Origin: Escherichia coli
GTDB lineage: Bacteria; Pseudomonadota; Gammaproteobacteria; Enterobacterales; Enterobacteriaceae
Reading direction: 5' to 3' (one strand)
NCBI RefSeq assembly: GCF_050920415.1
Contig: NZ_CP169309.1
Length of the DNA: 64,000 bases
Every line of letters begins with the position of its first letter. Positions within the stretch are counted from its first letter, which is position 1. This document shows, one piece after another, positions 23,589 through 25,780 of this stretch. A model generated the notes under the pieces. That model was given only the letters and a program-made list of their open reading frames with translations. It was not told the origin of the DNA and ran no database searches. The translations under genes and the position numbers were made by a program.

Positions 23589-23676
23589 GGTGAGGTGTCC
23601 GAGTGGCTGAAGGAGCACGCCTGGAAAGTGTGTATACGGCAACGTATCGGGGGTTCGAATCCCCCCCTCACCGCCA
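23589..23676 (+). tRNA. serX: tRNA-Ser (GGA anticodon), 88 nt with long variable arm and encoded CCA
   Basis: GGTGAGGTGTCCGAGTGG ... GGTTCGAATCCCCCCCTCACCGCCA recognised as E. coli serX; acceptor stem pairs. Confidence 0.92.
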
Positions 23677-24323
23677 TCTTTAAAGAAGAGCTCGTACGAA
23701 AGTACGGGCTTTTTTTTCGTATATTGCACACGCCGGGGGGATGAGAAGCCCCGACAGGGGTTCGACAACTGGCGACAGCCAGTTGGACAGACCGTGAACG
23801 CAGTGAGCGGGCTGCCCGCAGGGCGAGCGAAGCGAGTCAATCCCCCCCTCACCGCCATCTTTAAAGAAGAGCTCGTACGAAAGTACGGGCTTTTTTTTCG
23901 TATATTGCACACGCCGGGGGGATGAGAAGCCCCGACAGGGGTTCGACAACTGGCGACAGCCAGTTGGACAGACCGTGAACGCAGTGAGCGGGCTGCCCGC
24001 AGGGCGAGCGAAGCGAGTCAATCCCCCCCTCACCGCCATCTTTAAAGAAGAGCTCGTACGAAAGTACGGGCTTTTTTTTCGTATATTGCACACACCGGGG
24101 GGATGAGAAGCCCCGACAGGGGTTCGACAACTGGCGACAGCCAGTTGGACAGACCGTGAACGCAGTGAGCGGGCTGCCCGCAGGGCGAGCGAAGCGAGTC
24201 AATCCCCCCCTCACCGCCATCTTTAAAGAAGAGCTCGTACGAAGGTACGGGTTTTTTTTTTCGTATATTGCACACACCGGGGGATGAAAAGCCCCGACCG
24301 GGGTTCGACAACTGGCGACAAAC
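23660..24323 (+). repeat. tRNA-linked tandem repeat: 181-bp unit, ~3.7 copies, each starting with the last 17 nt of serX
   Basis: unit starts at 23660, 23841, 24022 and 24203 (period exactly 181); copies near-identical, last copy diverged and truncated near 24323. Confidence 0.9.
23686..23718 (+). terminator. serX intrinsic terminator
   Basis: stem agctcgtac / gtacgggct (one mismatch) with GAAA loop, then eight T; this hairpin recurs in each 181-bp repeat copy. Confidence 0.7.
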
Positions 24324-25690
24324 TCAATCATCATCCTTGCAGTTGATAAGAATTTCTGCCTCTTTTACAACTATCTTATTACGTCCGGTTTCTTTCGCTT
24401 CATATAGTGCATTATCAGCCATTCGATAGATCTCATTCGGATTTAACGCACTTCCCTGAGTCACCACAGCGCCAATGCTAATCGTCACTTTTTGCGGTAT
24501 GGCGTATTCAGGATTATCGCCTGTCAAACGCTCTACATTTGCCCTTATCCTTTCGGCTAAAACTTTCGCGCTTTCAGTATCGGTCTCCGTCAGCAAGACG
24601 CCAAACTCTTCGCCGCCAACGCGTGCTAAAAGGTCATTTGGTCGTATGCTTTTCCCAATGATGCTCACCACTGTTTTTATCACCTGATCGCCAACCGGAT
24701 GCCCCCACGTATCGTTAACTTTTTTAAAGTGATCGATATCCATAATCATGACACAATAAGACGTTTTTTGGGCTGATGCTGATTGAGCCTTCAGTTCATT
24801 GAAAAAATAATTCCTGTTAAATATATTAGTTAATGGATCGCGATGGGCAATGTTCTTTGTTACTCGTAGCGCACTGAAAATATGGCACATAAATATTACC
24901 ATAACGGTTAATTTACTGACTACTTCAATAGTGCGGCTAATATACCAAGTGGACACACTATACCTGCTCATAAATAACAGAGAGATATTATACAGCACGG
25001 CACAGAAAGCAATCACTGATACTCCATTCCAGATATCACAGCGTAAACCATTAAAGTATAGATTAACCAAAAGCAAGATTAACCACATGAAAATCATTAT
25101 GGTAACATATGAGGTTTTCCAGACTACCTGACCATTTTCATTTGTTAACTCGGCAATATGTAAACTGTAGTCATCATAATGACTACTTAGCATGTGAGCA
25201 ACTGCCGCCCCCCCAAAAATAAAAAACAGGCTTATACACAATGTCATTTTTTTGGAAAAAAACAGCGTTTCTTATTGTTTTCACTAACTTTATTCACCAG
25301 CGCTAGCAATATTAACATGCACAAACTCATCTGACGAAACAAATAATAAATTGCAATATCATTTTGTACAACGCTGCTTATCAAATGCCCCTCAATAAAT
25401 TGCTGAATGATAATGACAGTTTTAACAAAGTAAATCAAACAACTCAGAAACGCTAAACTAAGTATACAGTTTGAAAATTGCACACGATCATAAATGAAAT
25501 ACAATTGCATGAAAATAAATGCAACGGTATCGATAAAAAATAAAGCAATCATAACCATTAGATAGGTTGATCGTGGAACAACCTCCTCAACGGTTGGCTG
25601 ATTAAACCAACTATTTACCAAAACGAATGCAAGCCCAAACAATAAGCTCACCAATACAGTACTACTAATTCCCAAATAGTCTTTTTCCAT
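24324..25690 (-). pseudogene. dgcT: diguanylate cyclase DgcT (YcdT) with reading frame interrupted: membrane N-terminal ORF (25244..25780) and GGDEF C-terminal ORF (24324..25247) in different frames
   Basis: C-terminal ORF has GGEEF active site; N-terminal ORF is multi-pass hydrophobic; the frames switch inside a T7-GG-A7 tract at 25247..25262; could equally be a sequencing error. Confidence 0.6.
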
Positions 25691-25780
25691 AAAGCTACAC
25701 CAATCTGTAGGTTGTAGATCCCTTTCTGTCACTAATAGATATAAGAACTGTACTGTTGTCAATATAAAAATCCACCACAA

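Follow-up and report, generated by a model that had tools for sequence, protein, structure and literature searches.

The junction between serX and dgcT (ycdT) in the window, that is, in the whole 64-kb stretch of DNA analyzed here, is very probably the empty allele of a locus already known to be hypervariable, ancestral for Escherichia coli and its nearest cryptic-clade relatives and carrying an RtT-type repeat array. The first-pass annotation of this DNA had suggested an ancestral, unoccupied state, and this is the most likely reading of the locus, supported by a junction and a DgcT tail that are common to divergent Escherichia lineages.

Genes in this part of the window follow the order ghrA, serX, repeat array, dgcT (convergent) and pgaA. 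The serX gene, encoding tRNA-Ser(GGA), lies on the + strand at positions 23589-23676 (ARAGORN; Rfam tRNA, 53.8 bits) and is the single tRNA gene detected by ARAGORN in the 64-kb window. It was identified by its cloverleaf with a GGA anticodon, the adjoining ghrA gene and synteny with annotated records. A sigma-70-like promoter match, TTGACC-17-TAAATT (23526..23554, + strand), was found 5' of serX in a consensus scan and is a pattern match only. The conserved left flank is ghrA (312 aa; 22418..23356, - strand; from the ORF list), a label also carried in the aligned regions of K-12, 2020CK-00188, and MFDS1022581, and the conserved right flank is pgaA (807 aa; 26281..28704, + strand; from the ORF list and named in the aligned records), which is divergent from dgcT. 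The last base of the repeats is 24320, and 3 nt on comes the stop codon of dgcT (TGA, - strand, 24324-24326). No integrase, IS, or island gene is present in the serX-dgcT interval. Open reading frames of 119-157 aa exist there because the near-identical repeat units lack stop codons; all ORFs of the interval span repeats, none has a Pfam match, and they were ruled out as genes. Between the copies of the 14-bp core described below lies the 181-bp unit alone, with no foreign DNA and no integrase gene. A search for ycdU, ymdE, and IS3 elsewhere in the genome had been proposed; run within the 64-kb window, it found none of them, as BLAST of the K-12 ycdU-ymdE'-IS3 segment gave no match. BLAST of the whole 64-kb window with both ends of the O157 OI-47, or with the integrase-island end of PSUO2 and the DUF2726 gene, also gave no match. 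The compact serX-repeat-dgcT junction without integrase, IS, or island, as described from the sequence in the first reading, is thus borne out by ARAGORN, Tandem Repeats Finder (TRF), Pfam, and BLAST analyses of the window.

The repeats form a single tandem array of 3.66 units of 181 bp on the + strand at 23658..24320 (TRF: period 181, 3.7 copies, 98% matches), which begins within the last 19 nt of serX. Units start at 23658, 23839, 24020, and 24201, the fourth ending early at 24320, and units 1-3 are identical to one another at 180-181 of 181 positions. Each unit is made up of 19 nt repeated from the 3' end of serX, AATCCCCCCCTCACCGCCA, a terminator hairpin, and a G+C-rich, RtT-like structured segment. 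The 14-bp core CCCCCTCACCGCCA at 23663..23676 (+ strand) has four exact copies in the window by pattern count, at 23663, 23844, 24025, and 24206. Directly 3' of serX, at 23690..23717 (+ strand), the hairpin GCTCGTACGAAAGTACGGGC followed by T8 can be read from the sequence, and the hairpin GCTCGTACGAAAGTACGGGC-TTTTTTTT recurs at 23871, 24052, and 24233. On the + strand, this hairpin with its T8 run is a textbook predicted intrinsic terminator; read in reverse complement, it also resembles a terminator for the - strand (sites 23706, 23887, 24068, and 24249), and the reverse side of the hairpins is probably a candidate terminator of dgcT. The serX transcript would run rightwards and stop at the intrinsic terminator inside the RtT-type unit, the leftward dgcT transcript would stop at the reverse side of the same hairpins, and one set of hairpins may terminate the transcripts of both genes.

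Judged by sequence, the repeats belong to the known RtT-type family, a point that the first-pass annotation had overlooked. The three full units of the window match the RtT model (RF00391) end to end, at 23721..23857 (cmscan, 41.4-41.7 bits; E about 2e-6), 23902-24038, and 24083-24219 (both at 41.4-41.7 bits), all on the + strand, as against a gathering score of 45. An Rfam run at the gathering threshold accordingly reported no RtT in the window. The orthologous K-12 copies, which differ by a few bases, score 46.3 bits on RF00391, and the window copies fall below the gathering score because one base differs (GACAGGGG versus GACCGGGG). The orthologous serX array is labeled "RtT sRNA" in the K-12 RefSeq (PGAP) record. 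The architecture of RtT is present as well, with tandem units lying directly 3' of a tRNA gene and each containing a copy of the tRNA 3' end. An RtT RNA is by definition a stable species processed out of the primary tRNA transcript, and such a product of the serX array is at most putative.

On the other side of the array, dgcT is a pseudogene of a MASE4-GGDEF diguanylate cyclase (24324..25690, - strand), delimited by alignment with K-12, 2020CK-00188, and NRZ105822. Alignment with K-12 and other strains places its start at the ATG at 25688-25690; the limit of 25780 given earlier corresponds to an upstream TTG of the mechanical ORF and was corrected. A 1-nt homopolymer deletion (T8 to T7), not noticed in the first reading, splits the gene into ORFs 24324-25247 and 25244-25780. 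By alignment, the frameshift site is a sense-strand T7 at 25256..25262 (- strand), where the closest intact alleles have T8, and the -1 shift stops the N-terminal frame at 25244-25246 after 148 aa. The missing T was judged against 2020CK-00188, the closest intact relative (99.4% identical), and K-12; 14 other genomes with the dgcT allele of the window are 1 nt longer. Pfam recognizes MASE4 in one fragment and MASE4 plus GGDEF in the other, so that the domains of DgcT and its divergent position beside pgaA are present and an intact frame is absent. The frameshifted dgcT may affect c-di-GMP control of the PGA biofilm in the strain from which the window derives.

Near-identical 181-bp units and a frameshift in a T8 run are features that could also arise if the assembly had collapsed an island or extra repeats and if the missing T were a homopolymer sequencing error. 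The comparison with MFDS1022581, which is 99.98% identical over 5.2 kb, bears on both parts of this explanation: it has five copies of the 19-mer against four in the window, a difference of one between near-identical flanks, yet as an independent complete record it contains the same T7 run, in a gene annotated "frameshifted." The same junction is moreover found in 1199 complete genomes, and the flanks are colinear with all relatives. An assembly artifact is therefore extremely unlikely.

To place the compact junction among E. coli haplotypes, counts were taken among 5426 complete E. coli genomes. A 2-kb query found ghrA-serX-(repeats)-dgcT contiguous, and hence truly compact, in 1199 genomes (22%). 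When island-bearing genomes are included, the compact right junction is present in 1535 (28%), about 336 (about 6%) having an island between serX and the compact junction. The ycdU-ymdE genes are present in 2603 (48%), dgcT is present at all in 4122 (76%), and dgcT-pga is absent from about 1304 (about 24%), some of which carry a DUF2726 gene beside phoH. Four of these classes exclude one another, with 1199, about 336, 2603, and roughly 1304 genomes, and together they make up about 100%. A 160-nt junction query in megablast had undercounted the compact haplotype, at 41 genomes, because other dgcT alleles are too divergent for its 28-nt seed words, and it was replaced by the 2-kb query. The compact allele, seen in ST131 and S88 too, is a common one and nothing special. 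Direct serX-repeat-dgcT adjacency in K-12 and other strains had been named as the observation that would speak against the unoccupied reading; the adjacency does occur in other strains (1199 of 5426), but K-12 has an insert. The upstream context of ycdT in uropathogenic and commensal E. coli is described as departing from that of K-12 (Cimdins et al. 2017, PMC5635171), and the same paper describes other strains that have no ycdT-pga between phoH and csgG and keep serX and ghrA. The absence of dgcT-pga from part of the genomes counted here agrees with that description.

Copy number within the array is variable. Among other strains, the 19-mer occurs 1, 3, 4, or 5 times, and the K-12 array has 4.5 units. 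Most compact genomes, which span about 1458 bp with the 2-kb query, contain a single partial unit, as L003 does, and an array combined with the compact junction, as in the window, is rarer among them. Presumably, unequal recombination between units makes the array expand and shrink fast over a range of 1 to 5 such copies. The single-copy form, which is common in B2 strains, would be a collapsed derivative of the array and an end state: with the 62-nt second half of the unit missing, it would be unable to regrow.

The occupied state of the locus is seen in K-12, where serX is followed by 4.5 repeat units, ycdU, an ACP S-malonyltransferase fragment (ymdE), IS3, and dgcT; the K-12 gene content given in the first-pass annotation was thus confirmed in the K-12 record. 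In O157:H7 493/89, ycdU and an intact malonyltransferase gene are found 3' of serX, followed by further genes of fatty-acid/polyketide-like, ABC-transporter, and two-partner-secretion types, and the dgcT-proximal part in O157:H7 E32511 contains fimbrial genes and an EAL-domain gene (vmpA-like). We take this segment of ~30 kb, seen in the two O157:H7 genomes, to be OI-47. K-12 and others such as JE86-ST02 retain its left end only, beside IS3, and K-12 ycdU-ymdE' is the left end of an OI-47-like segment of ~30 kb that was truncated by IS3. The left breakpoint of OI-47-type segments lies inside a repeat unit, after CACACACCGGG, and the right breakpoint lies inside dgcT, 42 nt before its stop, giving a DgcT tail of RDVVNFCESP in the OI-47/K-12 form as against KEAEILINCKDDD in the compact form. 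The window lacks the OI-47/ycdU-ymdE segment by BLAST and has the tail KEAEILINCKDDD. Since the segment is integrase-free and has no att duplication, it is not a tRNA-att island; nor is K-12 ycdU-ymdE-IS3, the remnant of a segment bounded within the repeat unit and the dgcT 3' end. The likely course of events is that in about half of E. coli an OI-47-type segment (ycdU to the vmpA-like EAL gene) entered the locus at the expense of the final ~40 nt of the repeat tail and the 3'-terminal 42 nt of dgcT, and that an IS3-associated deletion would then have left K-12 with ycdU and ymdE' alone. The K-12 reference thus represents a derived, occupied state at the serX-dgcT locus, and viewing ycdU-ymdE as OI-47-like remains, and not as a serX att-site island, is of use in annotation and in pan-genome studies.

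The polarity of this change was judged from related lineages, whose loci were recovered by protein search and contig look-ups. Two lineages with flanks ~90% identical to E. coli, L007 and L047, have serX, 1.7-2.7 units, and then dgcT, with a junction homologous to that of the window (CAACTGGCGACAG/AATTAATCATCATCC) and a DgcT tail ending in KDDD. A related lineage, L036, shares this DgcT tail and has an integrase island on the far side of the repeats. In a scan of GTDB species genomes with allele-specific DgcT peptide patterns, the L007 locus was the sole Escherichia locus, the remaining matches being unrelated GGDEF proteins. A tree of dgcT places all OI-47/K-12 alleles, which are 99.3-99.9% identical, in a single shallow clade nested in compact-type alleles that differ by 4-21%. 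The opposite polarity, in which an ancestral OI-47/ycdU segment was deleted in the lineage of the window and in B2 strains, could appeal to the ycdU-bearing haplotype being the commonest in E. coli (48%) and to IS-mediated deletions known at the locus (IS3 in K-12 and JE86; PMC3064760). A deletion, however, would be unable to rebuild the sequences in common with the ~90%-identity lineages, namely the final 42 nt of dgcT and the 40-nt tail of the repeats, the shallow nesting of the OI-47-type alleles runs against it, and the window holds no BLAST-detectable OI-47 remnant. We consider a derived origin of the compact form quite unlikely.

Two observations limit how far the ancestral reading of the compact junction extends. 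The outgroup E. fergusonii is not compact, as cadCBA-dtpC-lysU separates its serX array from dgcT, and the DgcT tail there is of a third type; ancestry therefore holds for E. coli and the cryptic-clade lineages only, and not for the root of the genus. In addition, one locus (L045) combines E. coli flanks (97.7% identical) with a pga-dgcT segment of 83% identity, the switch lying inside the array. L045, a carrier of the divergent allele, is E. coli sensu stricto into which a pga-dgcT segment has introgressed, which indicates that recombination moves dgcT alleles and so weakens a simple parsimony argument. The locus itself is ordinary, its variability, islands, and repeats having already been described, and taken alone the finding is of little weight and raises no new question.

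Integrase islands at serX are a separate layer of variation, one that uses the 14-bp core in the real tRNA gene. The direct repeat of OI-43, OI-48, and SRL-PAI is the 14-mer TGGCGGTGAGGGGG (PMC3064760), and the 14-bp core in serX is identical to it. PSUO2 and 22KM0354 each have a gene for a tyrosine recombinase beside CCCCCTCACCGCCA, the compact tail, and dgcT, the island junction of L036 is at the 14-bp core as in PSUO2, and in O157 WS4202 island DNA begins right after the last base of serX. The role of serX as an island integration site, stated in the first-pass annotation, is upheld by PMC3064760 and by PSUO2, 22KM0354, and O157 WS4202.

It had further been proposed that the repeats supply attachment-site-like copies of the tRNA 3' end. 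As to sequence this is correct, as the window contains four exact 14-bp cores; use by islands is another matter. That the repeat-borne copies serve as extra attachment sites for serX/serW-type islands is made attractive by the presence in every unit of the exact core and 19 nt of tRNA 3' end, and by the identity of the core to the published direct repeat and the PSUO2 and L036 island junctions. Nevertheless, a chimeric query joining repeat, core, and island end, which covered one island-end type (OI-48/SpLE1), matched 0 of 5426 genomes at >=80% coverage (at least 80%), whereas the same island end is joined to true tRNA-Ser in hundreds of these genomes. Of 60 evenly spaced rows of the 2-kb-query matches, 0 broke off where a repeat-borne core ends, and the tRNA and the repeat are unlike each other 5' of the core. 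Extra attachment sites are thus very unlikely, and use of the repeat copies in this way is unsupported, at least for OI-48/SpLE1-type islands.

Repeats of RtT type are also present 3' of serX in E. fergusonii, and therefore predate E. coli. The units at serX and tyrT have a non-tRNA core in common, but in both the three T-stem-like strands follow the tRNA next to them, and L007 has a short unit with a perfect T-arm. RtT-type arrays might therefore be tRNA-templated modules and not simple duplications, shaped by continuing gene conversion from the tRNA gene or by selection favoring a fold like that of a tRNA. The array might also act as a recombination boundary for exchange of whole pga-dgcT cassettes between Escherichia species, in line with the L045 breakpoint inside the array. 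This is a speculative idea to which we give only a modest chance. Were it true, the array-plus-compact allele of the window would be the ancestral substrate.

The serX/serW islands (OI-43/OI-48, SpLE1, and SRL-PAI) have a P4-family integrase, and the window corresponds to the empty attB state. It resembles O157 493/89 in having an intact serX with the 14-bp core and no serX island; O157 493/89 and K-12, however, retain the OI-47/ycdU segment to the right, which the window lacks too. OI-47 and K-12 ycdU-ymdE-IS3 occupy the interval between the serX array and dgcT, and OI-47 alters the DgcT C terminus, whereas the window keeps the compact-type tail. The ycdT/pga account in PMC5635171 is based on draft genomes and appears to leave the compact junction and the repeats undetailed. 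The closest counterpart of the array is found in the tyrT-tyrV RtT repeats, one unit of which encodes rttR (Bosl and Kersten 1991, cited in PMC3318445). Both arrays consist of tandem ~180-bp units directly 3' of a tRNA gene, each unit ending in a copy of the last 19 nt of its own tRNA. The tyrT and serX units have the common core GATGAGAAGC..CGAC..GGTTCGAC ... CCCG.AGGGCGA and the same predicted closing helix, while their T-stem-like strands follow tRNA-Ser in the serX units and tRNA-Tyr in the tyrT units. A strong intrinsic terminator, absent from the tyrT units, is predicted in every serX unit, which argues that there would be little read-through at serX.

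The dgcT gene of the window (24324-25690) was compared with other E. coli alleles (L001, L003, and L004). The dgcT sequences share only 89-91% identity, against 97-98% for the flanks in the same comparison, and these values indicate that dgcT has deep allelic lineages within E. coli. Among 5426 complete genomes, the allele of the window occurs in only about 16. Furthermore, dgcT in the window is a pseudogene (25244-25262, minus strand): a sense-strand T8 run has become T7, and the reading frame ends after 148 amino acids. The near-identical strain MFDS1022581 carries the same T7 run and frameshift, while in 14 other genomes with this allele the gene is 1 nucleotide longer. 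Runs of A7, T6, and G7-G10 also lie close by in this allele, and it is therefore possible that the diguanylate cyclase is lost through slippage-prone tracts. In 2020CK-00188, the closest relative with an intact dgcT, the G run is G10 with 3 additional nucleotides.

A probable exchange on a larger scale was seen in locus L045, from an E. coli sensu stricto genome (GCA_050859165.1; 1-9674 compared with 9371-17368). Its ghrA-csg flanks are 97.7% identical to the window, whereas identity falls to only 83% across pga-dgcT, and the switch point lies inside the repeat array. Its DgcT protein (P0080) is identical to that of L047, an Escherichia lineage with flanks approximately 90% identical to those of E. 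coli. Collectively, these findings point to replacement of the whole pga-dgcT cassette between species.

The array itself also varies. The 19-nucleotide tRNA-end motif is present in 4 copies in the window (23658-24320) and in 5 in MFDS1022581 (1878-2721 of its locus, L034), despite 99.98% identity, and in 1, 3, 4, or 5 copies in other strains. Thus, either the copy number shifts on very short time scales or the array is hard to assemble. Alignment A1 (window 23721-23857 compared with 2116-2900 of the K-12 tyrT region, L042) revealed a non-tRNA core common to serX-type and tyrT-type RtT units. Each unit of either type also carries three T-stem-like strands, each matching the adjacent tRNA. The strands read GGGGGG/CCCC/GGGG/CCCCCCC in the serX type and GGAAGG/CTTC/AAGG/CCTTCCCC in the tyrT type; these differences are compensatory, preserving two helices and tracking the cognate tRNA gene. 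In the divergent Escherichia locus L007 (11654-11760), one unit is just 106 bp long and lacks a segment of about 78 nucleotides found in the 181-bp units, so that GGGGTTCGA abuts ATCCCCCCCTCACCGCCA to form a perfect tRNA T-arm, which hints at recombination between tRNA and unit at the T-loop.

The serX interval has several occupants. In E. fergusonii (L043 and L044, 11360-21230), a cadC-cadB-cadA-dtpC-lysU cluster, which lies elsewhere on the K-12 chromosome, separates dgcT from the serX array, so that the interval is occupied in a third way. The dgcT-pgaABCD genes are missing from about 24% of complete E. coli genomes; in two such loci (L040, 7409-8095; L041, 7228-7914), a DUF2726 gene lies between the array and phoH, and the repeat tail is cut at yet another position, at unit offset 101-103 or so. 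In serX islands (L005, 7638-9020; L039, 4777-4930), the integrase gene lies at the end distal to the intact tRNA, beside the leftover 14-bp core, and the WS4202 island carries CbtA/YeeU-type toxin-antitoxin genes near serX. This layout agrees with the published map of OI-48 (PMC3064760).
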